From: Rhizophagus irregularis
Lineage: Eukaryota
Assembly: GCF_026210795.1 (NCBI RefSeq)
Contig: NC_089434.1
Coordinates: 2,356,001 to 2,420,000, forward strand
DNA length: 64,000 nucleotides
Reading direction: 5' to 3'
Position 1 is the first letter of the stretch, and each line of letters begins with the position of its first letter. The translations under genes and the position numbers were made by a program. The notes under the pieces were generated by a model. That model was not told the origin of the DNA and ran no database searches. It saw only the letters and a program-made list of their open reading frames with translations. Below, one piece after another: positions 1-41,826 of the stretch.

Positions 1-566
1 AGTAAAAATAAAAAAAATAAAAATAAAAAAAATGAACTTACCATAGTTCATTCTTTTAAATCCTGGCCGTTCCTTTATCTCACGTCCAGGTTTCCTAAAA
101 AAAAAGGGAACATTAATTACGTTCCCTTAAATAAAAAATAAAAAAAAAACTTAAAAAAAAGGAATGAACTTACCATAGTTCGTTCATTTTTTTTAAATCC
201 TGGTCGTATCATTAGGCTTCGTTCATCCAAGCTTCCTACTAAAAAAGAAGGGAACTGTTAATTACGTTCCCTCAAGTAAAAATAATAACAAAAAAAGAAA
301 TGAACTTACCTAGTTCGTGCTTTTAAATCTTGGTCGTCCAGCTTCGTCCGTTCGTCCAGAAAAAGGTTTTTTTTAAAAAAATTTGATTCAAATCTGTTCA
401 AATCGAATCAGATTTTCTTGTGTTATGATCTGATCCAATCTGAAATTGATTGGATCAGATTTTTTTACTGATCTGATTTACGGATTAAAATTTTGAAAAC
501 CGAACTGAATCTGGCTCAGATCAAATCTGCGGATCCAGATCAAATCAGATTTTTTTTGAAGCACTA
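1..566 (-). mobile_element. End of a non-autonomous hAT-like element, with minus-strand micro-exon/intron units at 1-360
   Basis: The minus strand begins TAGTGCTTC, a hAT-like terminus, followed by GATCT/GATCC subterminal repeats. Repeated GAACTTACC (minus-strand GGTAAGTTC donor) occurs at about 35, 167 and 303. The other end lies outside the window. Confidence 0.5.
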
Positions 567-619
567 CTTAACGCATCTACTATAACGTATAATGTAATAA
601 TATAACTCTAAGGAGAGGA

Positions 620-1468
620 TAAGTTTGCATCTTACTAATGAGTCTTTTTCATTTTTTTATGATCACTACATAACGAGTTATCTTAATTTTACATTTTTTT
701 AAAATTTTAAACGTTAAAAAATAAAAATTCTGATCTAAGATATAACCTATCTTTTACTGATTGCATTAGAATAATCTTTAGCTTATTAGAACTGTCTCAA
801 TGAGACAAGTTGAATGATAGTAAGATCATATCTCTAGCATTGATATATCACGAGATAAATCATGCTAAGCAAATTTAGAAAATCAGCATTAGAAGGTATC
901 TATTGATACTAGAAATATAATCTTACCATCATTCAACTCGTTTTATTAAGATTTGAGATAGTTCTAATGAGCTAAAAATCGTTTTAATGCAATCAGTAAA
1001 AGATAGGTTATATCTTAGATTAGAATTTTTATTTTTTGACATTCAAAATTTAAAAAAATGTGAAAATTAAGATAACTCGTTATGTAGTAATTATAAAAAA
1101 ATAAAAAGGACTCATTAGATTCGTTTCATTAAGACCTATCAAATAATGCTAAAATCATTTCTCTAGGATCAATAAATACAATTCTAGCATTAATTTCTTA
1201 AAAAATGTTTAGTGTTGATTACTTCGTGATATATCAAGGCTAAAGAAATGATCTTACCACCATTTGACGCATCTTGATGAAATGATTCTAATGAGCTATT
1301 GCTCGTCTTTATATGATTACTAGTTGCTGAGTTATTACAATTTTGCATTTATTTTAAAAATCAGATAGAACTGAATTGAACTGAACAGTTCTGGTTCAGT
1401 TTTCATTTAGTTTCAATTCCTACCTAAACTGAAAAAACCTGCACTAAACTGACCCATTTAGAGCTTTA
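620..1468. mobile_element. Decayed copy of the palindromic hAT MITE at 33673-34837
   Basis: Shares GATCATATCTCTAGCATTGATA-type units, GAACTGAACTGAA repeats and the terminal GAGCTTTA, with many C>T/G>A changes. Confidence 0.7.
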
Positions 1469-1469
1469 A

Positions 1470-2120
1470 ACCATTTTTTAGTAAAAAAAACAAAAAAAAA
1501 TTTTTAATGAAAAAACATCGAATCTGACATTTTTTTATTAAAAGAAACAAAAAAAATTTTTTTAATGAAAAAATATCAAATCTGACGTTTTTCATTAAAA
1601 GAAACAAAAAAAATTTTTTTAATGAAAAAATATCAAATCTGACGTTTTTCATTAAAAGAAACAAAAAAAAAAGTTTTTAATAAAAAAATGTTGAACCTAA
1701 TGTTTTTCATTAAAAGAAATAAAAAAAAAAGTTTTTTAATGAAAAAATGCCGAATCTAACATTTTTTATTAAAAACACAATTTAATAAAAAAAATGACAT
1801 TTTTTCATTAAAAGATAATAAAAAAATGTTGAATCTGTGCTGTTTTTTTACATTAAAAGAAACGTAAAATAATATTTTTTTATTAAATAAAATGAAAAAT
1901 GTTTTTTTTTTAAAACATTAATAGGTTGGCTACGATCTCTACCTGACCTGATATAAAAAACATTTTGGCATAATATATGATATATAAAAAGTACTAAAAC
2001 GTTCTTTTTTATAAAAAAAAATGTTCAGCATTTTTTCTTATAATTTGATATATAAAAAACACTTAAATGTTTTTTTGACTCAAAATATATCAGGTTAACT
2101 AGATCAGGTGCGTATCGAAC
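1470..2120. repeat. Imperfect ~57 bp A/T tandem repeat (AATGAAAAAA..AAATCTGACGTTTTTCATT) within a MITE-like repeat; related sequence at 35545-35610 and 40398-40930
   Basis: Direct tandem units are visible; the 1458-1664 ORF is just the translated repeat. Confidence 0.7.
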
Positions 2121-3589
2121 TAATTCGTAATATTTAGATCAATAAGGTCATCAAATGGCTGACTCACCTCGCCAATGCGAGCCAATTACTTCGATCTAAT
2201 CGACCCATTCAAAGCTTTCTAACTTCGAAAGATTAGAATATATTTCTTCTGAAATTTACAATTTTTTTTAATTCTTCTTTAAATTCATCTATATCTTGTT
2301 CTAATTTTACAACTCTAGCTCTAAATTCAGTATTTTTGATAATAATATTTGTCCTGTTTTTCTTTAATTCTTTAATTTTAACCTTAAATTTAACTTTTAT
2401 ATTATTATGTCTGATACATTTATTTATAACATTTACTTGAAGATAAATATATCCTTAATAATAGCTTTATCAGCCTTATTTTTAGTTTCAAGTTCAGCAA
2501 TATACTGTTTCAATACTTTATGTTTGAATGGGTTAGCTTTATTAATTGATATGATTAATAATAGATAATTTATATAATTATAAAGGAATTATTTAATATT
2601 ATATGGCAAATATAAAGACTTACTTTATTAATACATAAAAAAAATAATACAAAAGTTTGGGATGTAACAAAGAAAAAGAATCATAAGAAATATTTTTAAT
2701 AAATATGAAAATTTATATTGTACTAAAAATAAATCTAACTAATAAAGTTATTCTTGATAGTTAATTACCCCTGCATTACTATTTACAATTACATGATTAA
2801 TTGTGATATTTTAGCATACAATCACATAATAGTAAAAATTTTATAAATATAATAAATATTAAGTTATTGGATTATTACTTAGTAAAAAATGGTAATTGGA
2901 CAATTGGACATTTTGGACATTTGTCTAAAACCTGTCCAAAACTTGTAAACTTGTCCAAAACAAAACCTTTTTTCATTGGACAGGTTTTGGACAGGTCACA
3001 TGACAAAAAATTAATTTTGGCCAGAATTATGACTAATTTTAGCTAATAATTTAATTTTAGTTCAATTAATAAATTGATTTTTTTACATTAATTTTTTATC
3101 ATTTAATTTATTAAATATTTACTTTTTTATTATATTTCTATTTTATTTTTAGTTTCAGTTGATGAATATTAGAACTCTTGAACAGTCCAAAACTATGTCC
3201 AAAATTGTCCAATTAAAAAACCAATTGGACAAGTCCAAAACCCAAAAATGCCCCCGGGTATTGGGTATTTACAAATTCATAAAAGTTTATGAAACAAATA
3301 ATTATTTTTGAAATAAATTAAAGTGAATTAAATATATCAGCTTGCCTTTTTATGTTTGACCTTTTATCATTTCTGACGTGATAAGCTCCGGAATTCGTAA
3401 CTAAAAAAGATTGTTCATCAAACAAAAAACGATTACTTTAAAAGGTATTTCGATAAAAATATGCGAGTTACGCGTGTATTCGCTTAGTAATACAAATTTC
3501 CGATTTACCTCCTTGTGTGACTAACATGGCCTGCATATATTGAAGAAGGTAATACAGTCTTTGTGGTATCTTCCGTAATATTTGTAATT

Positions 3590-5989
3590 ATGGGTCCAAA
3601 GAATGGAAATGCTTCTAATAGCAATATAGATTATGAAGATTCTGACGATCACGATATTTCTGATAATATAGATTTAAACAATGTCAAACTCAATACATTA
3701 TCTGCGAATGAGCAAGAAAAAGAAGGTATTACATATACATTTGTACGTTGTAGGATATGTATTCCATTATTCTAATTATTTTTGGTTTTTCTAATGTTAG
3801 ATGAGAGAATGTGGCAAGGGGTATGAAACTTTGATGAATCCAATGTCCAAAAAATTTCTTGTCATCTTTGATCCGATCCTGTTTAATATTCTATTCTATA
3901 GGTTCAAGCTTTTTTTTGCAATCGGTATACAGAAGCGCAGGAAATTTTTGCAGAAAAAGCAGATATTGATCCTTTATATGCCCTAGGTCAAGGGTGTATA
4001 TCATTTCTAAAAGGTAAGTTGATTAACCTAGTTATCATTACATTTATTAGTATTGTTTTTTAACATTTATTTCTTTATTTAGCGGTAACAACTTTTAACG
4101 AGCAGGATATTTCTATTGCAATTAAACAACTTGTTTCTGCAGAATCCTTAGCTAGCGCACAGATAGGAGCCTTTAAATCGCAATCAAGTATAGGATCAAG
4201 TTTCGGAAAGTTTATATCCAATTTAAATTACTTTGGAAATAGTAACAAGAATCAACAATTTATGTCAAATGGACAATTAAGAAGTACTGTTATTAAGGCT
4301 GAATCATTATTGTTGATAGCTCTTATTCAATTACTCCAAGAAAGTATTATTAGTTATGTAAAAGCAGGGTTGAACTTAAGACGAGGTAAATTAAATTATT
4401 TCTTATTTATTTATTTATTCTCTTTATTCATTGAATTTATACTACTAGGTTATAAAAACTACGAAATTGTGTGGAATGAAATTAATAAACCTGGCTTCAA
4501 TGTATCCGTGGATTATCATACTAAAGGGGGTGTAGAGTTTGGGTCGGTAATTTTTTGATGTAATTATGTTTTTATGTTGGCCAGATCTTTTTATATTTAT
4601 TAACATAATTTTGTTTATAATCTTTAGTTATGGAACATGTAATCTTGTACTTTCATTTATGCCTGGAAAAATTATAAAAATTATATCTGCTATAGGTTAT
4701 AGGGGGAATAAAGAATTAGGTATAGAATTACTAAACGCATCTTTAAAAGGAAGAGGGATAAGGTCGCCATTGGCATCTCTCTTGTAAGTTGTTGATACAT
4801 AAATTTCTATATTGCTACTTGACTTGTATGTTATTAATGTTCTTATGGACTGCAGATTTGTGACATCTTATACAATGCTGACTTCTTTTTCACCATCTAC
4901 TTTGGGCCCAGATAATGTATTTAATCCATATAAATATGTGGCATGAAATTTCATATTTATAATTAAGGTTTAATTCTTAAAATTGTTATACGTTTAGATA
5001 CCGAAAGCTGAAGAATATATTCAAGATGCTTTGAAACAATTTCCCGGATCTGATTTTTTTACTTTTTTCGCCGGCCGTAATCTCCGGCTCAAACGTGATT
5101 TGGATGCGTCTACCGAAGCATTCATATCAGTAAATCACAACCTAAAAGAAGGTTTTGGTGTCGAACTGAGACGTTTATGTGACTATGAATTGGGAATGAA
5201 CTACGCGATGACTTTACAATGGGGAAAAGCTGCACAATGTTTTGACACGCTTGCAACAGAGAACTATTGGAGTCCCGCGTTTTTCCGTTATTTTCAAGCA
5301 GCTTGTCTAGAAATGCAGGGGAAAAAGAAGGAAGCGATAGCTTTATACATAGAAGTTCCAGGTTTATCTGTTCGAAAATTTGGTGGTCGTACTATTCTAG
5401 TAGAACAGTATATTACACGTAAAGTAAAAAATTATATGGCGAAAAATTTTGAAAATACATTATTACCGGGTTTGGAGATTTTACTTATATGGAATAGTTT
5501 TGCATGTATGAAGAAAGAAGATTTGATCCGTTGTTTAGATATTGTTAATTCAAAATTGGACACTTTAAACAATAGCAATATAATTGATTCACAATGTATG
5601 CTTCTTCTTATCAAAAGTTCTATATTGAACCAGCTTCATCGATTTCAAGAAACGAATCAATGTCTCAGATGGATACTTGATCATAATGGTGACATAGTTG
5701 ATGATAAATTTATTGAACCATTCGCATTCTGGGAAATGGGAGTTGCCGCTTTTTTAAACGAAAATCTAGAAAAGGCTAAATTAGTATGGGAAGAGACTGC
5801 TAATTTTAATGGATATGAATTTGAATTTAGGTAATATGTAAAAAAAAACAAAAACAAAAAAAAAATTTCAAGCAAATTTTGTTTAACCATTCTTTTTATT
5901 ACAGGCTTGCAATGCGATTACATTTGTCATTAATGAAATTAAATGACATGCTTCCTGATAAAAAGAAAAAATCAAGAACTTTTATATAA
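3590..5989 (+). CDS. TTC39/IML2-family tetratricopeptide-repeat protein, about 9 exons (approx. 3590-3725, 3801-3820, 3902-4013, 4083-4385, 4449-4541, 4628-4783, 4856-4916, 4998-5830, 5904-5989)
   Basis: GT-AG introns join ORF pieces with family-typical motifs: SYVKAGLNLRRGY, GGVEFG..G.CNLVLSFMP.KIIKII.AIGY.G.KELG, C.YELG, YWS.AFF.Y, PFA.WEMG, GYEFE.RL.MRLH. Confidence 0.88.
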
Positions 5990-8180
5990 TTAGTTAACTT
6001 TATTAATTTGAACTAATCTTCGAGAGTATACCTTTATATAATATTATTAATTATTTTGTGCAAACATTTTACTGTAAGAACAATAGACAATGTTCGTAGA
6101 ATAAATTTTTTAGACATTTCCTAGCAACAATGTTTCCACATCCCACGTCATTGCCGCTGCTACAAAGTAATTCTTTTACCTTACTAGAAAAATTTCCTCC
6201 ACTCGCGTATCTTTCAAAATAATCTTATAATTGTAATCTATTCACTTCTTAGTCATTTGGTAACGGATATTCACTATTCTTTACATTAATAAATTTTCCT
6301 CTATAGAAAATGCGAGATCAGCCTCGCTCGAAGCAATTCAAATGTTGCTAAAAAGTATAAATTACCATATAGACATACAGTACTTACGAATTTACTAATG
6401 GGTAGTGCAATAAGTTGATTATATGTATATAGCAAAAATTTCATTGAGAAAAATCAGTTTAAGTATTAATTAGAAAAATTAGAAATTGATATATTATGGT
6501 TATTCTGTTAAAATCATGTTAATAGACTGACATTTTTCAATTATATAGGTTATGAATTAATCTTTTACTACAATTTTTAATTATACTTAATACTTTTATT
6601 ATAAAATTTTAATAATATTAACTAACTATTACTATGGCTTTGCTTAAATATAATAATCTAATTATTGGCATGTTTTTTGTACATTCTCTGGTAAAAGGTC
6701 TCTAAAAATTAAAAAATAACAAATAAAAAGTCAGATTCTTAATAATAAAATTACAAATTTAAAGTTTAAGTACAAAACATTATTTAGAAATATTTTTTTA
6801 TTTAATTAATTTTGCAGATATGTTTAATTTTTAAAATGGAACTTTTTAATCAAAGTAGTTATAGCAAAATAAATGCCAAAAGTCAACTTTTTTAACTAAA
6901 ATTGCTTGCTAAAATTAGTATAAATAGTAAAAAGATAAAATTAAAGTTTTAAATCTAATCTAATAGGATAAATAACCTGATAGATGACTTAAATATTTAG
7001 ATTAAATTAGTTATCTGATTAGAAATTTAAACTAGATATACAGTTAAACCTTTATATATTAATACAGTTTTTTTTTAAAAAAAATATTATTATATTAAAA
7101 ATATCAGTATATATTTGTTAGCAAATTATAATATAGGCCAAAATTTAATTTTTACCAGCATTATAATTAACTTTTTGAACAATTAACTAAGCCAAAATTA
7201 TGATATTATATTTCTATATTTAATTTTACAAAAAAATTTAAGATTCTTAATATACACTAGTATGCAAAATATGTATCACATAACTATAATTTGTTATCCA
7301 TGTTACATCCCTATAGTTTTCTATTTTTACTATTTATTCTAAAAACAGAATTTTTTTCAGAAGGAAAAATCTTATTTGTTACATATTATATATCATCCCA
7401 ATAATTTTAGCCAAATTTATAATTTCAGCCAAAAATTACTGTAATTTCCAATTTTGGAAATTAAAGTACTATCAAAACTGAAACTTGGTAAAATTATTTC
7501 TGAAATTTTTTTATTTTCCAAAATTGGTAAAGTTAATTTGAAACTGGTAAAACTAATTTGAAACTGGTAAAACTAATCCAAAACTGATAAAACTTAATCT
7601 GAAACTGATAATTAATCTAAAATTAATAAAACTAATTAAATTAATAAAAAAAATTTAAAATTAGTAAAAATTAATTATTGTAATAAAAAACGTTGCAAAA
7701 TGTTTTTTATAATGAAAAACTGTTGCAAATAGTTTTTATTTTTTAATTTAAAAAAAAGAAAAAATGTACGTTATACTAGGGATACCAGTATCCTACCCAA
7801 AACACATGATTTGTACACTAATATCGTGACACAAAATCATTGTACGCTACTATAATTTAAACTTTTTGATTTATAATACATACAATAAACTCTTTTTATA
7901 CTTTTTATACTTGAACGAAACTTTTTTTATGTAAAAACTACTTTTCTTTTTATTTAAAATGTGAACTTTCTGACAAATACTCTTTCTTATTTAATAAATA
8001 TTTCACTTAAACACAATTTTATGAACTTTTTCCGCACATGAAAATTTCACTTAAACACAATTTTATGAACTTTCCCTGAACACGAAAAATTTCACTTAAA
8101 CACAATTTATGAACAACTTTTCCCGAATGTAAAATTTAATAATCTTTATACGCGATGAGTAAGAGTTGCGTTTGCTATAG

Positions 8181-8331
8181 AATTACTTAGGGTTAGGGTT
8201 AGATTAGGTGCGTTGGTTAGGGAATTACTTAGGGTTAGAGTTAAGTTAGGTGCGTTAGTTAGGGAATTACTTAGGGTTAGAGTTAGGTTAGGTGCGTTGG
8301 TTAGGGAATTACTTAGGGTTAGGGTTAGGTA
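8181..8331 (+). repeat. 42 bp tandem repeat containing telomere-like TTAGGG/TTAGG motifs
   Basis: GGAATTACTTAGGGTTAGAGTTAGGTTAGGTGCGTTGGTTAG in about 3.5 copies. Confidence 0.85.
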
Positions 8332-8380
8332 TATTTGCTAGAGGATTGTTTACTAATTATTTACACTTTGATTTTTTTAG

Positions 8381-8995
8381 ATGATTAAAGAGATCAACGA
8401 TCTTGATTTTGAAAATTCATCAGTTGATTTACCACTTAAAGATGAGATCAATTTATCTAAATGTAATGGTTTTGAAGATGATGATGAAGTTGAAGATAGA
8501 ATTGTATAGTGGACAAACTTTTACTTCATTTGACGTACTTGAGCAATTTTTAAAACGATATGCAACTCAAATAGAATTTGAAACAAAAATCGTTCGTGTT
8601 GAAAAAAAAGATGATGTATATGCTCAAAAAACTTACAAATGTCGTCATGGAGGCAAGTATGAACCTAAAAAAAGGCTTGATCCTACAGAAAATTGAGAGC
8701 GAGAATCAGCTTGTATAGAATGTGGTTTTTTGTTAAATGCTTCATATCGAAAATGTTCAAATTTAGTTTTTATTAACAAATTTGTTGAAGAATATAATCA
8801 TACGTTAAATAGTCAAGAATTACTTCATCAATTTGCTCTATCTTTGCGTAAAATACCTGTTAATGTAAAAGAAGAGATTCATTTTTTAGTTCAAGATTGC
8901 CAGTTAGGTGCTACAGTTTTAAAACGAATTTTAAGAAAGAAATTTTCAGATCAAGAAATTTATCATCAAGATCTTTATAATTAAATACACAAATT
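8381..8995 (+). pseudogene. FAR1/MULE transposase N-terminal (WRKY-like) fragment
   Basis: GQTFTSFD....FL..YA...F.....TYKC.HGG.Y....R.R.S....C.F.LNA......INKF...YNH.L; has an in-frame stop and frameshift and is truncated before the DDE core. Confidence 0.8.
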
Positions 8996-10833: not shown

Positions 10834-13800
10834 CATCAGGAAGTCACGGAAAAAATATTCATCACATGTACATTTTTGTAGATCATGTATATTATAATAT
10901 TCATTATTTTAAATGAATATGTAATATTTAACGTTAATGAACTTCATCAATGAGATTTTCATTATGATGTGCAACATTTAATAATGAAAATTCAATGTTT
11001 ATCAAATGGTATTGAGTGAATAAATTTATACATATTTGAAAATTTTATATCAGCCCCTATTTATTATTATATCATGTGATATAATTTTAAATAGACTGGC
11101 AACATGATTTTTTTTTAAACTTAAAGAAACTTTTTTTTTTATTCTTCTTATCCTTTTATTTTCCCTTTCCCGCCCTTTCTTTTCTCATGTTTCCCCTCTA
11201 TAAAATTCTTAACGAATCATTTAAATTATTTGACCTAAATTTGTAATGATCTACTATTTGATCCATATTTAACTTGGTCGAATATTAAACATAAATTTAA
11301 ACTTTTACTTTTTTTAGACTCCTTTATTCCCTTCCATTTCGTCCTTCACTTTCCCTTTCGTTCTCCCTTTCCTTTGGCTTCTACCTTTTTTCTCACACCT
11401 TTCTTTTGCTTCATTTTGTTGACAATACTGTAAGTTTTTTTTTGAAACTTACATATTTTTTTTTAATTTAAGAAACGAACTAACGTTTCTCTTCATATTT
11501 TTTTTTGTAAGATGCGTAGAAGGTAAAAAGTTTGAATTCATAATGCCTATAAAGTAATAAAATAAAATTAATAATTCTGATTGGTTACTAATTACTACGG
11601 TTTCATGTTGGTCATATGACTTACCGATATTCTGATTTACCGATCCTGATCAGATCAACTTTTTATATAAAAAAAAAAATTTTTTTCTTTTAACAATTTT
11701 TTTTTAAATAATAATTTATTCTTTATTATTAAAAGAATGGCGGAAATATAAGTTAAGGGTGGATACTTGTTTTTTTTAATTTGGGAACATTACTAATGTT
11801 CCCTTTCTTTTTTTTCTTTAAGAACATTCTTCTAGACATGAATTCCATCGAAATGAAGCAAGAACAGCCTTTCCTTGGAGTTATACAGTAAGTAGTTTAA
11901 TACAGTTTACCTTTCCTATAGCGAATTTTTATATAACGAATCACGTGACGCTTAGCCAATAAAATATGTTAATTTTCTCTCGCTATAACAAAGTAACCAA
12001 TCAAATTCTTCAAATTCTTCGTTAACTTGCTATAATGAATTTGAGGTGCAGAACAGCCAGTTTCTTCGCTATATCAAGAATAGACTGTATACGGTTATGA
12101 ATTGCGTTACAGAATAACACCAACGCATTTTTTTTATTTTTTAGTTTTTCGGCCTTTCCTTGGAGTTATACAATAAGTAGTGTAATGTATGGACAGTATG
12201 GTTATGAAATTGCGTTATGGAATAACACTGACACAATTTTGTTTTATTTTTTAGTTCTTCGGCCTTTTCTCAGTAGGTAGTGTAATGTATGAATAGTATG
12301 GTTATAAAATTGCGTTATGGAACCCCACTAACGCATTTTTTTTATTTTTCAGATTTCCAGCTAGTGGATGAATTAACCTTAACTCTCTCACGGGGATTTT
12401 TTGGATGTAAATTCAGATCACCTTCACCTTTCTTATAATCAGCAAGAATTGCTGCACATGGGTTGGTATAGTTTGGAAAGTGTGTGGTTGTATAATGGCA
12501 TTTAAAACAATACTAATGCCAATTTTCTTTTATTTTTTTAGGTTTCTGGTTATGGAATATGCGGTAGGTGTTGTTTGGTGAGTGTGTGGCTGTGTAATGG
12601 CATTATAAAACATCATTAACACCATCTTTCTCTTTTTTTAGGTAAAGCTCAAGCCCAGCTCGAGTCAGCTCTTGAATACAAAACTGGACTTTAGGTAAGA
12701 AATGGAAAAAAAGTGAATTTTTTGTTATTTTAAATATGAGAAACGAACTAACATTTCTTTTGTTATTTTTTTTTGTAGAATTCATACTAGAAAGACACCG
12801 GCTTAAATACGAAACCGGACTTTAAGGTAAAAAACTGGGAAAGGGATGAAGGAAGGGACTTTGCAAAGAAGAACTAAGATTCATAAGAATCTTAGTTTTA
12901 TTTATTTATTTTTTATTATTTTGGAACGGTTACTAATAACCGTTCTTTTCTTTTTAGATTTTAGGTGGACTTTCTATTTTCGGATAAAGTGGAACCAAGA
13001 TTCATAAATACGTACAAATCTTGGTTTTTTATTTTTATTTTTTATTATTATGAACAGTTACTAACCGTTCTTTTTCTTTTATTTTTTATAGGTACAGGTG
13101 GTCTTCCGAAGAACATAAAATAATAAACTGAGGTTCGTAAGTATTTTACTACAAACTTTAGATTTTTTTTAATATTACGAACAGTTTATTAACTGTTCTT
13201 TCTTTTTTTTTTTAGAGGATCGGGTGGATTTCTGAAAATCGGAAAAAGGAGAACTAAGGTTCGTAAGTATTATATTACGAACCTTAGATTTATTTTTTTA
13301 ATACTATGAACGGTTCTAACTGTTCTTTTTATTTTATTTTTTAGGTTTCGGGTGGGCCTCCAATTTTCAGATAAAGTGGAACCAAGATTCGTGAGTACGA
13401 ATCTTGGTTTGTTTGTTGTTTTTTTAATATTATAGAACGGTTACTAACTGTTCTTTTTCTTTTTTTTAGGTTTCGGATGAATTTCTGAAAAATGAAACAA
13501 GAAGATCAAGATTTGTAAGTATATACAAATCTTAACGGAATGGATTAGTAAGTTTCAAAGTTTTACTTCGAAACTTTTTTTAAAATTTTTTTTTAAATTA
13601 ATTTTTTTATTAATACTTTTTTTATCTTTTTATTGTTAGGTTGTACTTCTTGGACAAGTTTCGAAGAATAACTTCAAACCTTTTTTTGTAAGTCCTGGAG
13701 TATTTAGTTAATTAATATAAAGATTGTAAGTTTCGTTGCAAAGCCTACTGTCTTTTTTTTCATTTTCTTTAACAGTTGTTACTTTTAATAATAGAAAAAT

Positions 13801-14042
13801 TTAGCTAATATTATTGTTATAGTGTATTTAATAAAATAAATTCAATAATATTATAAATTTAATATGATGTTTATTATCTTTAAATAATGTACATCATTAA
13901 TGGACATTAAAATTAGGTGATGCACATCAAATATTGTGACATCGGTAGTACATTGCAGGGTCCGATGTTCAGCGTTTCTTTATGATATACATTAAGTGAC
14001 TGATGTACATTTGATGAACATTTTTTCTGTGACTTCCTGATG
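10834..14042 (+). mobile_element. Non-autonomous TIR element (CATC-ended, CMC-like) carrying a micro-exon/intron array
   Basis: TIR CATCAGGAAGTCACGGAAAAAAT / ATTTTTTCTGTGACTTCCTGATG, with TT on both flanks. Confidence 0.8.
11903..12087. mobile_element. Tc1/mariner-type MITE (~185 bp); second copy at 46888-47068
   Basis: CAGTTTACC...TAGACTG termini flanked by TA; near-identical second copy in an unrelated context. Confidence 0.85.
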
Positions 14043-15799
14043 TTCTTGCTTTATCCTCTTTACATTATTTTATTCCCTGAAACTATATTCCTAAGTCTTA
14101 ATATTGGCATTATGAAATCTTACTATTATATGATGATATACGGTTTAAAAAAGTTTTACGAATGTAAAGATAACAGTTTAACAAGCTACATCAGGAATTT
14201 TTAATATGCAAAGTACTTTGTGAACTTTACATAATGTAAGAATTATATAGTATTTCGCAATAAGATTACAAAGTACTTCAGTGTACTATATAAACTTAAA
14301 TTTTGTAATATTTAAATATATTACATAGTGTAGCCCTACATAATATGCCAAAGTACTCTATAATTTTGTTAAAATGTATTTTTTCAAAATATTATAGACT
14401 GTAATTCAACATAAAATATCAAAGTACTCCATATTTTAATGTAATGAAATAAATGTAAAGCATAACTTTATGTGATATTCCATAACGTATTGTCAGAATT
14501 TTACATAGCAAAATTTTTGCCAATTTTTAAGTTTCACAAATCACACAATGTTAGTTCATCAGTTTAAGAAAAAAAATTGAATTGCTGAATAATTAAAACT
14601 TCTTCAATGTAAAAGATTTTAAATGAGTATTCTTTTAGACTTCAACTGAATTCTGGTCGAAATAGTTTTATTTTTATTTCTCTTACACACATTAACGACT
14701 GTTACTTTTTTTTCTTTAGGTATCATTTTTTTGATATCGGTACGGTGATGAATTTAGTTTTGCCTCTATTTAGTTTCTAACCTATAGGAATTCAACTGGA
14801 CAAGTAAGTTGCCACTTTTGTTTTATTTTCGTTTTTGTTTTAACTTTATACTAACCGATTCATTTCTTTTTTTAGACTTTACACAATTTTCTTAGATTTA
14901 CAACATCACAGGATTTTTGAAGTGTAATAGTCCTTCAAATGAAAAAATCAGATTTAGCTGAATTTTAATAAAGTGAAAGCAGAAATATTTTGTATAATCT
15001 TGCCAAGAAATTGAACAATTGCTAATTTTCCATTTAGATTCTAAATAAGGTATTGATGTCTTCGTCGTGTATATACTTATATGTATTGTACAATATTATA
15101 CTTGCTCATTATCACTTTTTCGTTATTATTCCTACTAAAAAAAAGGATTAAACAGAATCCTATTGTGAAAAAAATAGAGGTTTAAAATTAAGCTGGGTAT
15201 CAAGGTTGGTAGCAAATATGTAGATTCGATTTGAAGATTTAAAGAGCGGAATAGTGCTTTTTTATTAGTCATCAATCATTTAAATAAATAATTAGACAAT
15301 AGACTTAATGTCAATATCTGGGGTATGTCAAATGAACTTTTTTAATCGTGATTTATATACTAATATATTAACTCTTTGCCTGCTATTCGTCTTATTGCAA
15401 AGAACATGATTATCTTCAACTTATGATTTAACTAGGGAATATATGATACTCGAGCATTAAGGCATTGTGCAAATCCAGCATTTAATCAATATTACATTAT
15501 ATCATCGCATTTAAATTAAATAATTAAATTCTGATTCTAAAATAATTCCTTACTCCTTATTGTAATACAGATTTGATTAATGTAATTTTGATGACAAGAT
15601 TAAATTTTAATAAAAAATGACTTCTACTTTAAGAAGAAATAAACGTATAAAATATTTTAGTCATAAATAGCATTATCAAAAGTAACAGCAATTGGTAATT
15701 ATTAATTCGTAATATAAAAATAATTAAAATAATTATTATTTTTTATTAAACATATATATATTATTGTTTATAGAAACAAGATCAAAATTTAGATAACAC

Positions 15800-18237: not shown

Positions 18238-19346
18238 ATAAAAAATTAACTAACAATGAAGCAAATATATCATTTTTAATTTGAAAGACAGACTTTTTTT
18301 TGATTCACCAAATTGTGTATACCTTTTTTGATTCAGAAGTTTTATTACATGATAAAGAATATACTTTTTTTGACTCATAAATGTACTTTTTTTGATTCAG
18401 CATGTGCACTTTTTTTTGGTTACTTTCTTTGATTCATGCAACTTATGCAATCAATAATTCCAGAGTTTTTTATACATGCAATATATAAAAGACTATATAA
18501 TCTTATATACGAATTATTTATTGAATTATAATTATATTGAATATGATGATAGTGATTTTTAATCTTTATTATGATGTATTCACCAAAATCACTATTATTT
18601 CTTACTAATATCCATCATAATTTGTTGTGCAGTTCCTAAAAATCAAGATGTTTGTAATCGAGATAGCTCTGTATAATGGATATATTTAAAGTGCTAAGAA
18701 TTATATTAATTTAAAAAAAATATTTACCAAATTATAGTATACACTGGTCAAAAACTAGGCAAACATAGCTTAAGCTTGAATTTTATTAATTAATGCCGAA
18801 GTGACTTTAGAAAACACAGAGTAATCTATAAAGTACCGCAACAAGTGCAGAACTAATAGAAAACAAAGAACAAATAATCTTCCAAAATTACAAATAAAAA
18901 AGAAAAGCTAAGATTATAAAACCCCACCCTCTCTATATAAATAACTACGGCTACTCCCCCCAAATCTATTTCAAAATGGGTAAAGTCGACTATGCTATAC
19001 GTAACCCATCCAGCGTCATACCCACTCCTAGAATTGGTAAAGAACCTCTGAGCTACTATTAGCACCATCAAAAACGCATAAAATTCAATTTCCCCTATTT
19101 GGCTACATACTATGGATAACAAACCTATTTCATAAAGATCTCTGGGAACTTTTTAGTGTCATGCAATCCCCGAAGAAACACCCACCTCATTGCGAATGAT
19201 CCCAAACGGAGGACACCCACCTCATTGCAAACAATCCTTCGACCTACAAAAATTTACTATTTTTAATCAATATAAAATCGATATTGTTAAGTTTATCTTA
19301 ACGGTATCATTTCGATATCATTTCAATATCATTTCAATATTGATTT

Positions 19347-22300
19347 CATCAGGAAAGTTTTTGGGGTTTAGAACTGCAGAGATCTGTGAAATTAGCAGAT
19401 CTCCGCATTTTTTTGCACTTTTTTGACGCATTTCTGCGAAGTTCTGTGAATTTTGCAACTTTGCAGATAATTGAATATTTTTATCTATAAATCAGCAAAA
19501 TTCTGCAATTTTGCAGATTTCTGCAGATTTATTAGAAAAATTCTGCAGTAATCTTCGATTTTGCAGATTTTTGCTTTTATTTTTCATTGAAATATCAGCA
19601 ATTTTATCATTTTGATTAACTCTAATTAATTTAACACAATTGCCAGTTGGAGTAGAACCCCGAATAATACTAATATAACTCACAAATGATCGGCATGCAT
19701 TTACTACGATATTAACTCTACACAACTTTTTTTTCATAGTAACACTACGCAAATCCAAATCTTAGTTCAAAAAATTTTTGTTACTAATATAATTCGTTTC
19801 ACATTTTTTCTATTAGTAAGATATTAATAAAATCATGCGAAACTCACCATTTATTTGTTAAAATAGTGCGTTTCGCACTTTTTTATATTAAAATATTAAT
19901 AAAATGGTGCGAAACTCTCCATTTATTTGTTAAAATGGTGCGTTTCGCACTTTTTCTATTAAAATATTAATAAAATGGTGCGAAACTCTCCATTTTTTTG
20001 TTAAAATGGTGCGTTTCGCACTTTTTTATATTAAAATATTAATAAAATGGTGCGAAACTCTCCATTTTTTTTATTAAAATGGTGCGTTTCGCACTTTTTT
20101 ATATTAAAATATTAATAAAATGGTGCGAAACACTCCATTTTTTTTGTTAAAATAGTGCGTTTCGCACTTTTTCTATTAAAATATTAATAAAATGGTGCGA
20201 AACTCTCCATTTTTTTGTTAAAATGGTGCGTTTCACACTTTTTCTATTAAAATATTAATAAAATGGTGCGAAACTCTCCATTTTTTTGTTAAAATGGTGC
20301 GTTTCGCACTTTTTCTATTAAAATATTAATAAAATGGTGCGAAACTCTCCATTTTTTTTGTTAAAATGGTGCATTTCGCACTTTTTCTATTAAAATATTA
20401 ATAAAATGGTGCAAAACTCTCCATTTTTTGTTAAAATGGTGCGTTTGCACTTTTTTATATTAAAATATTAATTAAATGGTGCGAAACTTACCAATTATTT
20501 ATTAAAATGGTGCGTTTCAAACTTTTTTTTCTTAATAAAATGGTGCGAAATTCACCATTTTTTGTTAAAGTAGTGCATTTCGCACTTTTTTCCTATTAAA
20601 AAATATTAAAATAATGCGAAATGCATTACTTTTTGTTACTATATATCGGGGTCCTGTTGGAGTATATTTGTCAGTTCGTATTATTACAGTAATCATTACC
20701 AATCGGATATAAACCAGAAATCGATAAAGTTGATCAGACTAGTCAATTATGATTTGTGTGCCGAATGATAATCTTTAGCTTTAAAAAAAGTTTTTTTAAA
20801 AAATTTATCTTTTCTAATATTTTTTTTAGGTATCAGCGAGACTCTTCGCTTTGGATTGGTAAGTTTTGAAAGTTTTTCTTTCGAAACTGTTTTTTTAAAA
20901 GATTTTTTTAATATTTTTTTTATTTATTTTTTTAGGTATCAGTGAGACTCTTCACGGAAAGTTTCAAAAGTTTCATTCTTTAAACTTTCGAAACTTTATT
21001 TTTTAAAAAAAAATTAATATTTTTTTTATTTATTTTTTTTAGGTATCGGCGCCCTTCACATAAGTTTCAAAAAGTTTCATTCTTAAAACTTTTGAAACTT
21101 TCGTTTTTTAAAAAAAATTAATATTTTTTTTTATTTCTTTTTTTAGGTATCGTGAAACCCTTTCACGTAAGTTTCGAAAGTTTTTTGAAACTTCGTTTTT
21201 TTTAAAAAAAAATTAATATTTTTTTTTATTTCTTTTTTTTAGGTATCGGCGAAACCCTTTCATGGTAAGTTTCGAAAGTTTCATTCTTCAAACTTTCGAA
21301 ACTTTCATTTTTTAAAAAAAAATTAATATTTTTATTTATTTCTTTTTTTTAAGTATCGGCGAAGCCCTTTCACGTAAGTTTCGAAAGTTTCATTTTTTCG
21401 AAACTTCATTTTTTTAAAAAAAATTAATATTTTTTTTTTATTTTTTTTTTCTGTATCGGCGAAACCCTTAATGTAAGTTTTGAAAGTTTCGTTTTGAAAC
21501 TTCATTTTTTTTTAAAAAAATTTAATATTTTTTTTATTTTTTATTTTTTTTAGGTATCGGTGAGACCCTTCACTTTGCATCGGTAAGTTTCAAGAGTTTC
21601 ATTTTTTTGAAACTTTGATTTTTTTTTTAATTTTAATTTTTTTCTTTATTTGTAGGTATTGGTTGGGATCTTTGGAGTAGTAAGTTTTGAAAAATTTGTT
21701 AATTTTTTTCTTTATTTGTAGATATCGGTTGGCGGGGACATTTGGATGGTAAGTTTTGAAAAGAATCATATTCTTTTCAAAACTTCAAATTTTATTTTTT
21801 TTAACTTTATTTCTATATTTTGTAGGTATCGGTTGGGATTTTTGGATAGGTGAGTTTCGAAAAGTTTCGTTCCTTCTTTTCGAAACTTATTTTTTTTTCT
21901 TATCTTTATTTTTCTATTTTGTAGGTATCATCAGTTGGAAATTGGGATTTTTGAATAAGTGAGTTCGAAAAGTTTTGTTCGTTCTTTTCGAAACGTATTG
22001 GTTGAATAGGTAAGTTTTGAAAAGTATCATTACTTTTTAAAACTTTAATTTTTTTTTAATTTTCTTTCTTTATTTTGTAGGTATCGGTTGGCGGGAACAT
22101 TTGGATGGTAAGTTTTGAAAAGAATCATATTCTTTTCAAAACTTCAAATTTTATTTTTTTTAACTTTATTTCTATATTTTGTAGGTATCGGTTGGGATTT
22201 TTGGATAGGTGAGTTTTGAAAAGTTTCGTTCCTTCTTTTCGAAACTTATTTTTTTTTCTTATCTTTATTTTTCTATTTTGTAGGTATCATCAGTTGGAAA

Positions 22301-23530
22301 TTGGGATTTTTGAATAAGTGAGTTCGAAAAGTTTTGTTCGTTCTTTTCGAAACGTATTGGTTGAATAGGTAAGTTTTGAAAAGTATTATTACTTTTCAAA
22401 ACTTTAATTTTTTTTTTAATTTTCTTTCTTTATTTTGTAGGTATCGGTTGGAACCTTTGGAAATGAAACCTGTGGTAAGTTTTGAAAAGTTACATTACTT
22501 TTCAAAACTTCATTTTTTCTCAAAAAGTTTCATTACTTTTCGAAACTTTAATTTTTTTTTAATTTTTTCTCTTTATTTTGTAGGTATCGGTTGCAACCTT
22601 TGGAAACGAAACCTGTAGTAAGTTTCAAAAAGTTACATTAACTTTTCAAAACTTCAATTTTTTTTCAATTTTTTTTCTATATTTTGTTGGTATCGGTTGT
22701 GACCTTTAGATAGGTGAGTTTTGAAAAGTTTCATTTCTTTTTGAAACTTCAATTTTTTTTAATTTTTTTTCTAATGAAACTTTACTAAGGTATTCTCTTT
22801 TTGTAGGTCTATGACTTTCTGGGTGTTTCCTGAATGGAACTTCGAAGGTATTCTTCGAAGTTCTTTAAATTTTTATTTTTTTTAATAAAATTTTTTTTTT
22901 TAACAAAATTAATTTTTTCTCTTTTTTTTGTAGCTTCGCAACTTTTTAGATGATATCTGAAGAGAATTTTGAAGGTATTCTTCAAAGTTCTTTAAATTTT
23001 GGATGAATACTTTAGATATATGCGCTGTCAACGTCATTAAAATACATTTGAAAGATGATTATATTTTAATAAGTTGGCATATATTGGGTTTTTTTCTCAA
23101 TTTTTATATTGTATTTTATTAATTTCAGTTAGTTATATTTGAAATTCTTTAACTTTATAAATTTATTTAGCTATATTCAATTTTGCAATTTTATTTGACA
23201 AATTTATTAGTAAATAAAAATACATAATAAAAAATATAATATATAATGACTGTGACGATTAGTAAATAATTTATTTTTTTGTGAATTATTGCAGAACTTC
23301 GTTCTTGAATTTTTTCACAGAATTTTGTTCTTGAATTTCTTGCAGAACTTAGTTCTTGAAATTCTTTGCAGATTTAATTTTGAAGATTTTCGCAGAACTT
23401 TATTTTCTTGAAATTCTGCGCAGTTTTTGATGAATTTTTTTTTTCAAAGACTGCCGACAGGGTTGCAGATCTGCGCAAAAATGTCACCTGCAGATCTGCG
23501 TAGATCTGCACCCCAAAAAATTTCCCGATG
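19347..23530 (+). mobile_element. Non-autonomous CATC-ended TIR element (~4.2 kb) with satellite and micro-exon array, inserted into a GATATC-rich MITE (about 19243-23842)
   Basis: TIR CATCAGGAAAGTTTTTGGGG / CCCCAAAAAATTTCCCGATG, GCAGA subterminal repeats and a TT duplication. Confidence 0.82.
19790..20630. repeat. ~71 bp tandem repeat, about 11 copies (dimer of AAAATGGTGCG subunits)
   Basis: Directly visible head-to-tail units with no unique spacers. Confidence 0.9.
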
Positions 23531-24579
23531 TTAATATCGATATGATATCAAAATAAAGTATTATCACTTCGATATCATTTTGATATTAAATCGATATTGA
23601 AATGATATTGAAATGATAATTAAAATGATATCGAAATAACATCTTTAAATTAAACTTAAAGATGTTGTTTCGATATCATTTCTATTATCATTTCGATATC
23701 ATTTCAATATCGATTTAATATCAAAATGATATCGAAGTGATAATACTTTATTTTGATATCATATCGATATTAAATCAATATTGAAATGATATTGAAATGA
23801 TATCGAAATGATATTACTTGAAAACTTAAAGTTTCTGTAAAGTAAGATCTACCTAGATAAGTTAATCTAATGATAGCCCAACATGTGACCACCATGATCA
23901 GCATACTATAAAAACTGCGGTACCCAACCTGTCACCCCTTATCACCCGAGTGATCATTGATTTTGAAATTGTAACACCAAGCCACCATGACGATCAAATT
24001 TTCCAGTATCCCCCCATCCCCCAAAGAAAATAAGGTTACACTGAAAAAAGCGACCAAGAAAAACAAAAAGCAAAAAATAAAGACATAAACCTCAGGAAAA
24101 CTCGAAGTGCAATGAGAAAAACCTGAGTAAAAAACACCAAACATACATCTCAACTCCGTCTCCTTATTTTAGAAGACTAACTCCCCCGTTAACAACATCA
24201 ACTAGCAAGAAATACATTAGTCAGGAGCTCCTTCCAAGAAATACTGGTCCAGCCTGCGAACCACTTGGCCAGTTAGACTTTAAAGGCGTAAGAACCAAGA
24301 CGCACTACTTTTCAACCTTTCAGAAAGCCCAAAGGAACGTTTATATGGAACTGCCATCTTACAGTATTATTGGTAACTCCAAGACTCATGATAATAGTCC
24401 TAACTCAATATAAGCCGTAAGGAGTTCAGGCAAAACTAAAGACCTCGGTAATAACTTCATATAACGTTAAAAAGTCCTTTTACTATCACTCAAGGTAAAA
24501 AATCCTCATATTTTTCATCTATGTCTTCGGGAAAAAATGGGCAGAGCCCAACGGGAGAGAAAGTACGATGATCCTCACT

Positions 24580-27720: not shown

Positions 27721-28871
27721 TGCAAAAATCATCATCAATGGTATTCGCCTCTTTCTTAAGTTAAAGACTCTGGACATTGGTGTCGCATATGCAATTATAA
27801 TAATATTGAAGTTGCAAAAGCATTGGCTCGTACTAGAGATGGAGAATGTCTTTCTTCAGAGTATTTTGACAATAAAAGTCCTTTACAGTGGAAGTGTGTT
27901 AAGGGGCATATATGGACTGCGAACTTAAATAAAATAAAAGATTACAACCAGTGGTGCCCTACTTGTGATGGGCGAAATCCGACTATATTTGATATGAAAA
28001 TTCTAGCACAAAAAAATAACGGAGAATGCCTTTCAGATCAGTATTATGATGCACACACAAAACTTTTATGGCGTTGCAAGAATTTTCATATATGGGAAGC
28101 TCCTCCACTAACTATTCTGAGAGGTAGCTGGTGTCAATACTGTGCTGGTACTGCAAAACTTGATATTGAAATTGCTAATCAAATTGCATTATCGAGACAA
28201 GGCCAATGCCTTTCAGTGGAATACAAGAATATAAGCGCACCACTTCTATGGGCTTGTCAATATAATCATCAATAGTAGTCCTCACTTAGTAGTATAAAAC
28301 ATTCTGATACATGGTGTCCATACTGTGCAAGTATGGCTAAACATACTCTTGATGATGCTAAGCAAATTGCTCTCACTCGGGGTGGTAGGTGTCTTTCAAC
28401 AGAATACAAAAATAATAAATCTCCTTTATTATGGATCTGTAAAAATCGGCATAAATGGTATGCAAAATTCGATAATATTGTGAATAAATGCTCATGGTGT
28501 CCATATTGTAGCATAGTAAGTATAAATGTGAAAATCTATGTCGTCAAATCTTAACAAAATATTTGGGCCCTCTATCAGAAAATCGTAAGCCTGATTTCTT
28601 AAAAATACCAGAGCATTCAATGGGGCTACAACTTGACATTCCTTATTATCACTATGGTTTTGCAATCGAAGTACAAGGAGAACAGCATGATAAATATATA
28701 GAATTCTTTCATAGAGGAAACCTGAATAATTTCATCAGACAGCAAGAGCGGAATCAATTCAAGAAAGAATTATGCGAAGAAAATTGCATCAACCTAAAAT
28801 ATGTCTGGTATTACAAAGATCCACATATAGTTATTCCAGAGTATCTTCGAGAACTGGGTCTTATAGAATAA
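27721..28871 (+). pseudogene. Tandem zinc-ribbon repeat protein with C-terminal PD-(D/E)XK (Vsr/DUF559-like) endonuclease, of the type seen in large DNA viruses
   Basis: Five W.C..GH.W.........WCP.C repeats, then LQLD....GFAIEVQGEQH...FFH.....Q.ER...K..LC....I.L; in-frame TAA/TAG stops, a frameshift near 28516, no introns. Confidence 0.75.
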
Positions 28872-28958
28872 ATATGAAACTTTAAATGCGTGTATTTCAT
28901 TAAAATCCTTATTTTTTCGATATAGTAATTTCATGCTCAGTCCAACCAAATGAGAAAA

Positions 28959-29692
28959 ATGGAGTATTATATATATCATCTTAACGAGACCAAAAATTTA
29001 AAGAATATGAATCACCCTGCAAGTCCTGCGTTTCCTTTTCATTTGTTAATTTGCGGTAGACCAGATAGTGGAAAAACTAATATGATTCTTAATCTTCTTC
29101 TTGGAAATAAAATTCAACGTTTATTTAAGGAAAAGAAAGGGTGCGGTATGTCAAAAATGATGATCTAGTCTTAATCGGAAAGCATATCCATGAACCCAAA
29201 TGGGTATTAGTAAAAAACTGCTATGAAATTTTTGCAAAGGGTCCAAAAGCATATCGAGAGAATGTAACATTTCGTGCGTTAAAAGCAGATGCGATTCCAA
29301 ATATAACTAAGTTCTCACCAGATAGAAACACTGTTGTAGTCTTTGAGGATCTTTGCGCTGAATCAAAAAAAATTCAGGATCGGATTGTTCCATATTTTAT
29401 CAGTGGCCAACATCAAGGTGTATCAAGTATATATGTGAGCCAGAAGTATACACAAACTCCTAAAATTATTCGCGAGAATATCACCCATTTAGCTTTATTT
29501 CGAGGCTCAGGAAGCCGGGACGATATCCATAGAATCGTGCGACAATATACGGATGATCCAAAAAAAGCATCCAAGATTATTGACAAACATTTGCGAGATC
29601 AAAATTTTGTGGTCTTCGATTTTACTAAGGCATTTGACGATCCTCTCGCAATTAGATTAGGTTGAAACACGCCCTTAAAATTGGATGAGTAG
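28959..29692 (+). pseudogene. A32-like (FtsK/HerA superfamily) genome-packaging ATPase, Polinton/Maverick or NCLDV type
   Basis: Walker [14 protein letters not shown], Walker B VVVFEDL, family motif [15 protein letters not shown]...PKIIREN; frameshift near 29135 and a probable TGG>TGA at 29663; no introns. Confidence 0.82.
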
Positions 29693-33672: not shown

Positions 33673-34837
33673 TAAAGCTCCGAACGGGTCGGTTTGGTCC
33701 GGATTATAGACAGTTTGGATTAGAGCCGAAATCTGTAAGAACCGAACCGAAAAACCAGCAGTTCAGTTCGGTTTAATCCGATTTTTTATAAAAATGTGAA
33801 AAATCGAATAGCCGGCCATCTAGTGATCATACAAAGTCGAGCCATATATCATTGGATTCGTCTCGACGAGACGCGTCGAATGGTGGTAAGCTCATGTCTC
33901 TAGCATCGATAGATCACACGTTAGCCCACGCTAAATGATTTATAAATAATTGGAATTATCAAGCTATCTATCGGTGCTAGAGACATGATCTTAGCACCAT
34001 TCGACGCGTCTCAGTGAGATGAATCCAATGAATATAAATTCGTCCGTGTATGATCACTGGATGGCGAAAAACATCAAGTTTCGCATTTTTTTAAAATTTT
34101 CAAGTGTTAAAAATTAAAAATTCCGATACATGAATTTATTCGTCGTCCAATGGTCGTACAAATATGAATTAGGACTCATTGGATTCGTCTCGATGAGACG
34201 AGTCGAATGGTGGTAAGATCACGTCTCTAGCATCGATAGATAGCTTGCTAATGCCAATTTTTTATAAATCATTTAGCGTGAATTAAAATACGATCTATTA
34301 ATGCTAGAGACATGATCTCACCACCATTCGACTCGTCTCATCGGGATGAATCCAATGAGTCCTAATTCATATTTGTACGACCATTGGACGACGAATAAAT
34401 TCATGTATCGGAATTTTTAATTTTTAACGCTCGTAAATTTAAAAAAATGCGAAACTTGATATTATTCGCCATCCAGTGGTCGTACACGGACGAATTTATA
34501 TTCATTGGATTCGTCTCACTGAGACGCGTCGAATGGTGCTAAGATCATGCCTTCAGCACCGATAGATAGCTTGCTAATTCCAATTATTTATAAATCATTT
34601 ATCGTGAGTTAACGTGTGATCTATCGATGCTAGAGACGTGATCTTACCACCATTCGACGCGTCTCGTCGAGACGAATCCAATGATATATGGTTGGACTTT
34701 GTAGGATCACTAGATGGCCGGCTATTCGATTTTTCGCATTTTTATAAAAAATCGGATTAAACCGAACTGAACTGAACTGAATTTTGAGCCGGTTTCGGAT
34801 CAGTTCCCCGGTTTAGCCCGAACTGTTCGGAGCTTTA
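33673..34837. mobile_element. hAT MITE whose interior is a ~1 kb near-perfect palindrome
   Basis: TIR TAAAGCTCCGAAC / GTTCGGAGCTTTA, 8 bp TSD ATTGGCCT. Confidence 0.92.
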
Positions 34838-38900: not shown

Positions 38901-39850
38901 ATTGTTCAAGATGATAATATTTATTCTTATCAATAGGTGTTATCCAAATATTCTTCTTATAAACTTTTATTGTTGTTACTTGATTAATAGTTCGTATAGG
39001 AATTTCTGATGCATGATTCTTAGCAGTAATATCACGTTTATGTTGCAGAAATATAATATAATTCGAAATAACAATAATGAAATCATCAAGTACATCACGG
39101 AGCCAATTAAAGTTTTCTCTTAAGATCCATGATAATGTAACATATGGAGCAAGAGCTTGACAATGCAAGTTTAATTCATTTGCATCAAAGGGTTTTTGTG
39201 ATTGCTTGTATGATTCTGGATTTGCGCGACTAAAAAACTCAAGGAAAAGCTTAGGTATGTGATAATTTCGTTCTTCTAGTTTCTTATGATCATGCATATC
39301 GATATACCAAATTGTTTCTGTTAAGCTAACAATAAATTCCTTTCCTTGCGTGTCAGCACATAATTTAGTGGGCCACCCACTGCCATGACTGTGGATCCAA
39401 TCAACAATATCATTACGCAATTTTTGCTTACGATTTACCTTTTCTGACTGTGGAAATGTTGGCAAATGCAACTGGAATTTGTGTGCATTTTGCATCAAGA
39501 TTGTAAATCCGTTTGATTGTACTTGAGTAGCTTCAGTATCATCAGATTTTAGTCGATAGTGTAAATGTATTCCTATATTTCTGGTAAGTTCTATGATATT
39601 ACAGTTAATACTGACTTGAATTGCAATGCTGGTTGGTATTTCACTTAATTCAACACGTTCTATTTTTTCAGAACTTGTTACGGCAATATTGCATTCAGAG
39701 GATAGTTTCTTATTAACTAGCTTTGTAAAAAAATCTTTTATTGACATTTCACAAGAAATAGGATGGATGTACCATCCATGGAGTATTCTTATCCCTTTAG
39801 AGATGCGAGTATTTACAAGTAGCATGTTCAAAAAAAAGGTATTTGTAAAA
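35921..39850 (-). pseudogene. Zator/TP36-like DDE transposase with introns near 38772-38834 and 36872-36938, interrupted by a MITE
   Basis: Motifs FLDDKH, ADHDF, YTDGGPDH and PPQHSWKNPVE; Cys-rich C-terminus; stop codons and the insertion at 37658-37879. Confidence 0.75.
37658..37879. mobile_element. 222 bp hAT MITE (inverted copy of 26940-27161)
   Basis: Same TIRs, 8 bp TSD GTCTTTAC. Confidence 0.92.
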
Positions 39851-41375: not shown

Positions 41376-41826
41376 TTCGTGATCCGTATAATAAGTAGTG
41401 AAAATCATTATTTAAATTCGGGGAAAATAAAAAAATGTATTTTTTGCGATTATCTCGTGACTCAGTAATCCAATTTCAATGTACAATTTTTTATCGTGTA
41501 GCTCTCCACGCCTTCTGCAAAATAAAAAAAAGATCATTAAAATTGGACCAATAGATCGTGAGATAATTACAAAACCGATTTTTTCAGATAATATTGTGAG
41601 GAATTTAGCCACATTCCGAAAAAAATCATTTTTGTATTATCTTACGATCTATTGGTCCAATTTTGATGATCTTTTTTTATTTTGTAAAGGGCGTGGAGAG
41701 CTACACAACAAAAAATGTTTATCAAAATTGAATTACTGGATCACGAGAAAATCGCAAAAAAAATGATTTTTTTATTTTCCCCAAATTTGAATAGTGACTT
41801 TCACTACTTGTTATACGGATCACGAA
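41376..41826. mobile_element. Palindromic MITE flanked by TTAA
   Basis: TTCGTGATCCGTATAATAAGTAGTGAAA / TTTCACTACTTGTTATACGGATCACGAA; the interior is also inverted. Confidence 0.82.

Follow-up and report, generated by a model that had tools for sequence, protein, structure and literature searches.

Why should a transposable element that encodes no transposase carry, in its interior, a long head-to-tail series of very short exon-like and intron-like units, all reading on one strand and many of them with a hairpin at a splice signal? The question is posed by a 3209-bp element at 10834-14042 of the window, the 64-kb stretch of Rhizophagus irregularis DNA that was analysed and within which all coordinates are given. 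The sequence-only reading had placed the units in a CATC-ended element, and such an element is indeed present, with CATC…GATG ends and a 2-bp TT target duplication on both flanks. Its left terminal inverted repeat (TIR; ~38 bp) and subterminal region lie at 10834-11006 (+), and an inverted-repeat match to this end forms the right TIR at 14005-14042 (-). The list of open reading frames contains none of at least 100 aa inside the element, and no empty site was seen.

The ends give the best indication of what the element is. An exact 23-nt stretch of the TIR, used as a search pattern, had one metagenome match and none in viral or prokaryote sequences; the matching contig, L001, has a transposase gene of the Plavaka type (PF18759, E 7.6e-35). 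Positions 440-613 of L001 are 76% identical over 174 bp to window positions 10834-11006 (E 3e-30), the right end of the element matching over 40 bp only. In L001, positions 440-3324 hold the TIR together with the 3' part of this gene, which looks intact and is interrupted by four ordinary introns without hairpins. All eight of the matches listed for this transposase are to R. irregularis proteins, its closest relatives, and the Plavaka proteins of this species show 46-89% identity to it over 43-100% of the query. No loci for it were found among the viral or prokaryote contigs searched, and a full autonomous element was not seen. Judged by these sequence matches, the element is a non-autonomous DNA transposon of the Plavaka/CMC (CACTA-type) kind. 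Many divergent contigs cover both of its ends, indicating multiple copies, summed contig depth not being a measure of copy number. The 174-bp match is at the L001 end that is 3' of the transposase, so that the array would read in the direction opposite to the transposase, an orientation drawn from a single end of a single contig. In a tblastx comparison of the element with L001 only the left end was matched, with no transposase remnant between the array and the right TIR, and no transposase sequence overlaps the array.

The array itself occupies 11317-13775 (+) and mixes about six types of cassette, with 17 acceptors (a T-tract followed by AG) and 19 donor-like sites, chosen by hand after a pattern scan. 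This agrees well with the ~18 units previously proposed for 11420-13720, between which coordinates 15 of the acceptors fall. Strand polarity is marked: a plain count of acceptors gives 15 on the plus strand and 1 on the minus strand of the array, against 1-2 per strand in the flanks (4.5 and 3.8 kb). Exons are 11-113 nt long, mostly 40-50, and introns 75-92 nt. A CT-rich leader at 11150-11429 (+) is a likely transcription start region, RNA depth beginning at about 11285-11400, and is followed by the first full intron at 11430-11511 (+; donor hairpin z -3.2, branch hairpin z -2.7). The largest cassette type comprises six paralogues of ~125 bp at 12872-13537 (+), with a donor stem of 11-13 bp and a branch stem of 7-9 bp; next to them, at 13541-13639 (+), is a cassette that also occurs in an array at 20.8-23.0 kb (13541-13622 against 20852-20933, 83% identity over 86 nt). 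A block of 359 bp is present twice in tandem at 97% identity. A candidate poly(A) signal, AATAAA, lies at 13830-13835 (+), and RNA depth is ~0 after 13858.

The intron signals of the array are stronger than those of ordinary introns. For comparison 13 control introns were taken: eight from IML2/TTC39, the neighbouring gene at 3.6-6.0 kb, whose longest exon is 100% identical to an R. irregularis protein; one at 14804; and the four of L001. A junction row is present only for the IML2 intron 4917-4997, and candidates with donors at 15050 and 15323 were excluded because no acceptor was found for them. The control at 14804 belongs to a small gene-like stretch at 14720-15420 (+), with at least one intron (14804-14875) that has a perfect branch consensus. 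Scored with standard consensus motifs, the median branch score is 7.5 in array introns and 6.5 in controls; the pyrimidine fraction is 0.89 against 0.57.

The copy in the window is decaying. Four of its 19 donor-like sites read AT rather than GT, some units are fused, and a 185-bp MITE with a TA duplication (11903-12087) sits 15 nt into the intron that starts at 11888, confirming the intronic insertion suggested from the sequence. Another copy of the MITE, 93% identical, is found at 46885-47072, and DNA contigs also include a form of the array that lacks it.

A coding function was rejected. The predicted spliced RNA of ~840 nt has no ATG-initiated reading frame longer than 36 codons (at the predicted splice sites), and the exon lengths occupy all three frames. 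The array was also considered as a host gene for snoRNAs or miRNAs and rejected as such, an Rfam scan of the introns giving no credible match to a known small RNA (best E 0.54, with a score far under the gathering threshold).

All five of the hairpins originally quoted at the splice signals were found. One is a perfect 13-bp donor hairpin at 13380-13409 (+), a single match with none expected in 100 shuffles. The others are branch hairpins at 11472-11489, 11783-11803 (+; 9 bp, z -4.0), 12924-12945 (+) and 12497-12520 (+), the last, of the GGCATT type, not being significant (z -1.7, p 0.09). When each window was compared with 100 dinucleotide shuffles, p<=0.05 was reached in the array by 8 of the 19 windows at donors and 9 of the 17 at branch sites, against none of 13 for either signal in the control introns. 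The stems thus go beyond base composition. The claim that the units as such share a hairpin architecture stands only in part: there is a clear excess over shuffles, but about half of the units are without a significant hairpin. The donor window from which the MITE was removed, itself not significant, is ~5 nt too short. Hairpin scores also differ between array and controls by Mann-Whitney tests (p 0.002 for donors, 8e-5 for branches), p-values that are too optimistic because the array units are paralogues. Hairpins at exon starts were dismissed for this array (1 of 12); elsewhere they were found in 5 of 18 cases in an array at 57.9-61.4 kb and in none of eight host cases.

Comparison within the six-unit family gives some information on whether the stems are maintained as pairs. 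Four of 11 donor-stem pairs are altered on both sides (one doubtfully), and one branch-stem pair varies between G-C, G-U and A-U. In 500 shuffles the observed paired fraction was reached 6 times and the covariation score 11 times, the number of two-sided pairs being reached 83 times. Two CpG deaminations would account for one of the two-sided donor-stem changes, from CG to TA. The two-sided changes may be taken as modest support for pairing of the stems. Masking of splice sites by the stems is unsupported: in whole-intron ensembles, pairing at the donor site is 0.62 in the array and 0.58 in controls, and pairing at the branch site 0.47 and 0.54, so neither site is clearly more occluded than in ordinary introns.

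The array is transcribed. The RNA evidence consists of reads from polyA libraries of runs labelled R. irregularis, which derive mostly from paralogues and hence apply at the level of the family. In two polyA runs, mean RNA depth is 79 over 12923-13507 and only 0.04 and 0.16 at the ends of the element, ends which are deeply covered in a DNA-like contig set (X14, kind unrecorded). The RNA-to-DNA depth ratio (x1e-3) is 2.5 in the array against 0.007 and 0.016 at the ends; contamination by DNA is therefore no explanation of the signal, since the ratio is 160-360 times higher inside the element. One run listed as possible RNA (X5) behaved like DNA. RNA run X6, which also contains spliced IML2 mRNA, has zero depth at 7960-8883.

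Splicing is seen directly at one intron. The joint 13133-13215 (+; GT..AG, 83 nt) is carried by 17 reads in all three polyA runs (6, 7 and 4 reads; two samples), together with an X6 contig at depth 21.8. The same RNA-only runs gave 59, 63 and 54 junction reads for the host IML2 intron 4917-4997, used as a positive control. The donor used, at 13133, is a GT that belongs to the stem and precedes by 4 nt a textbook GTAAGT at 13137. This is the one joint visible for the ~14-17 predicted introns, among the 15 of 71 joints listed for the RNA-only runs, and it is absent among the 15 of 62 joints listed in a DNA-dominated comparison, a genomic intron-less copy being possible; the alignment cut-off of 85% means that the joint may also come from a paralogue. 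A much deeper joint, 11575-9514, was disregarded, as it consists of two ~20-nt matches in reads that continue into other sequence. The expectation that RNA junctions would confirm the units is thus borne out at 13133-13215, but other stretches are unspliced. In X6, unspliced pieces of 100% identity cover 13378-13540 (depth 16.8) and 13511-13646 (depth 12.7), the donor hairpin 13380-13409 among them, and most aligned RNA reads contain intron sequence. The unspliced reads are possibly antisense, because the libraries appear unstranded, with about equal depth in both mate directions. Poor alignment is to be expected of spliced reads that come from divergent paralogues, and no single read or contig piece spans the whole array. 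At 13004, 13008 and 11887 the RNA reads have G, nearer to the donor consensus than the window copy, so that other copies appear to have better donors. Consensus agreement at loose read ends is ~0.5 after the acceptors; the exons thus diverge while the intron signals stay. The interior RNA is likely to be one spliced, partly intron-retaining non-coding transcript.

The array is not alone, at least four TIR elements in the window carrying arrays of this kind. The element at 19347-23530 has CATC ends and a TT duplication and is inserted in a long palindromic repeat; besides its plus-strand array (20.8-23.0 kb) it holds a 71-bp tandem repeat at 19795-20621. The element at 50124-52722, also with CATC ends and a TT duplication, is nested in another element, and its minus-strand array (50.4-52.3 kb) has a CT-rich leader and several donors of the GC-AG type. 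The surrounding element, at ~48174-53579, ends in CACTA on the right and is eroded on the left, and its flanks rejoin to match 18756-19246; nested insertions have divided its array, mostly poor in hairpins, into two parts (48.56-49.13 and 52.96-53.24 kb). The largest array is in the element at 57142-61782, which has CATC ends and a CpG observed/expected ratio of 1.97; some of its exons fold, and no target duplication was seen. A short decayed array at 62600-63050 is kin to that at 20.8-23.0 kb. Stems are distributed unevenly among the arrays: donor and branch stems number 21 of 25 and 9 of 22 at 57.9-61.4 kb, 8 of 15 and 0 of 15 at 20.8-23.0 kb, and 0 of 11 and 6 of 12 at 50.4-52.3 kb.

The array at 11317-13775 and that at 57.9-61.4 kb had been thought independent, with the same design on unrelated sequence. 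A comparison of their units upholds this for the exons, none of 15 showing similarity at p<=0.05, but not for the branch regions, 5 of 13 of which match. Branch regions of 8 of the 13 units match the minus-strand array at 50.4-52.3 kb and none match host introns; two exons match the 48.6-49.1/53.1 kb array; and one branch-hairpin pattern has 15 matches across three arrays where 0.03 are expected. A branch-hairpin pattern searched in viral sequences had no match. The units match the arrays of other transposons and not the IML2 gene. Independence must therefore be given up. Because introns, branch regions and exons are shared across elements, the arrays form one pool of cassettes rather than separate inventions, and the common design may be inherited rather than convergent. 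The earlier argument from recurrence of the design to a shared functional rule is weakened accordingly.

The remainder of the window is rich in repeats. Long near-perfect palindromic repeats are common (635-1118, 23531-23773, 33759-34774 and 41372-41830), and a 42-bp tandem repeat with TTAGGG telomere-like units (8180-8330) adjoins a decayed open reading frame at 8385-8696. At 56700-56990 (-) a broken transposase-like remnant, perhaps CACTA-like by its motif, is followed by a CT-rich repeat, and further donor-like sites lie at 54.3-55.0 kb (-). A split transposase-like gene at 35921-39882 (-) has no Pfam match and is presumably Zator-like from its DGGPDH motif. Reading frames at 27760-29665 (+) that encode a zinc finger of the treble-clef kind (PF14311) and match the Pox_A32 ATPase (PF04665) weakly, below cut-off, suggest a Maverick/Polinton-like or viral remnant.

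What, then, might the array be for? The reading that we favour, at a probability of about one half, is that CMC/Plavaka elements carry in it a module for a non-coding RNA that loads spliceosomes. The module would be built from duplicated cassettes, its stems would tune splicing rate and donor choice, and it would regulate the element family, probably through the way in which host silencing treats the element. RNA polymerase II would start in the CT-rich leader and end near the AATAAA at 13830. The exon-intron cassettes would have been duplicated in tandem and then swapped among CMC-type elements. Branch points of strong consensus, with their U-tracts, may recruit one spliceosome about every 125 nt, and the donor and branch stems may set the speed of cutting and the choice of GT at each intron to give a mixture of spliced and retained forms. 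RNA running opposite to the transposase would probably feed host RNA surveillance, through small-RNA or chromatin control; a regulatory role for the RNA is suggested by analogy with transposon-antisense lncRNAs of Blumeria and spliceosome-linked RNAi of Cryptococcus. R. irregularis has both methylation of transposable elements and small-RNA loci, according to PMC8647823. A bolder version, unlikely as it stands, sees a dedicated ‘intron battery’ of the CMC/Plavaka elements of arbuscular mycorrhizal fungi, a non-coding RNA consisting of little else than strong, hairpin-gated splice sites, in which these sites are selected and cassettes exchanged between families so that spliceosome loading steers host silencing. 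Such steering might license the element as self or throttle it through RNAi.

The array could instead be a product of neutral amplification, in which one hairpin intron, or a few, of an ancestral transposon UTR were copied in tandem and shuffled, DNA template switching goes on perfecting the palindromes, and transcription and occasional splicing are by-products. Cassettes common to several arrays, near-identical tandem blocks such as the 359-bp pair, and a window full of other palindromic repeats are all to be expected from such a process, as are the four dead donors of the window copy, the CG to TA stem change produced by two deaminations and a two-sided pair count within the range of shuffles. 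It accounts less well for the fact that about six diverged cassette types keep the order donor, branch, U-tract and AG on one strand, that exons diverge where intron signals are kept, that stems occur at splice signals and not at exon starts, and that paralogue reads have better donors. Neutral amplification is thus a serious possibility, if an improbable one. The module could also be a relic: in an autonomous Plavaka element it would be an intron-rich 5' leader, or a second gene, that controls expression of the transposase or a helper, and non-autonomous copies would have retained it passively as an orphan. Non-autonomous TIR elements usually arise by internal deletion, the CT-rich start resembles a promoter-proximal leader, and the L001 transposase does have introns, four ordinary ones. 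But the array appears to read against the transposase (the left end of the element corresponding to the L001 end 3' of the transposase, the one end seen in that contig); no transposase remnant follows the array, and the product spliced at the predicted sites has no open reading frame. This origin seems distinctly unlikely.

The palindromes might, finally, act as DNA, as binding sites for the transposase or a TnpA-like helper, with their likeness to introns secondary. Short palindromes recurring at ~125-bp spacing inside CMC-type elements invite this comparison, since element proteins bind the subterminal repeats of CACTA transposons. It is hard to reconcile with strict strand polarity and real splicing, with stem sequences that vary among cassettes, and with the presence of separate subterminal repeats near the ends of these elements, and we regard it as very improbable.

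The spliceosome-loading module has partial counterparts elsewhere. LncRNAs that host snoRNAs, of the GAS5 type, have many conserved introns, variable exons and no open reading frame, features that the array shares; its introns of 75-92 nt are without an Rfam match. Introner-like elements are sequence-similar, structured introns of fungi, dispersed singly in host genes. The repeated stwintrons of ascomycetes are likewise families of similar fungal introns with secondary structure, but they too are dispersed singly in host genes, whereas here the introns stand head-to-tail with exons inside TIR elements.

The element resembles the Plavaka transposons (PF18759; CACTA/CMC/EnSpm) of R. irregularis in having the TIR of a Plavaka-encoding contig, a short TIR, a 2-bp duplication and the same host species, and differs in lacking a transposase and in having a non-coding exon-intron array as its interior. 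PMC11075540 assigns Plavaka to the CACTA/CMC group, describes it as prevalent in several strains of R. irregularis and names it among the superfamilies with expressed families in colonised roots; the word ‘intron’ has no occurrence in the main text of that paper. Closest in kind may be the transposon-antisense lncRNAs of Blumeria hordei, which by PMC10648671 are also fungal, transposon-derived, spliced and non-coding, run opposite to transposon genes and show intron retention. Those lncRNAs have 2.3 exons on average and more than five in <1.9% of cases, the validated antisense examples lying in LTR elements, whereas the array lies in a DNA transposon and consists of repeated cassettes, ~17 units in all, with hairpins at splice sites. 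In Cryptococcus neoformans, RNAi could be recruited by introns of transposons whose splicing kinetics are altered (review PMC6232588). Those introns belong to the transcripts of the transposons and are poorly adapted, whereas the array repeats, in a non-coding RNA, splice signals that surpass those of host introns.

No account of such arrays was found in a search of titles and the starts of abstracts in the open literature, and supplements or transposon libraries may already contain the elements as consensus repeats. The arrays go unmentioned in keyword passages of the main R. irregularis transposon and genome papers and of PMC13465315, PMC12810828 and PMC5751038. The known kind to which the array would belong is the transposon-derived spliced lncRNA, here in a non-autonomous Plavaka/CMC element.

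Unclassified repeats make up some 30% of the genomes of R. irregularis (PMC11075540), and 41% of its small-RNA loci come from unannotated regions (PMC8647823). With several such arrays inside a single stretch of 64 kb, a class of repeats and transcripts that is common may have gone unrecognised, and the arrays will yield false many-exon orphan gene models in annotation. Their introns, paralogues of which some have a donor or branch hairpin and others none, also form a series supplied by nature, by means of which the link between splicing kinetics and recognition of transposons becomes testable in an early-diverging fungus.
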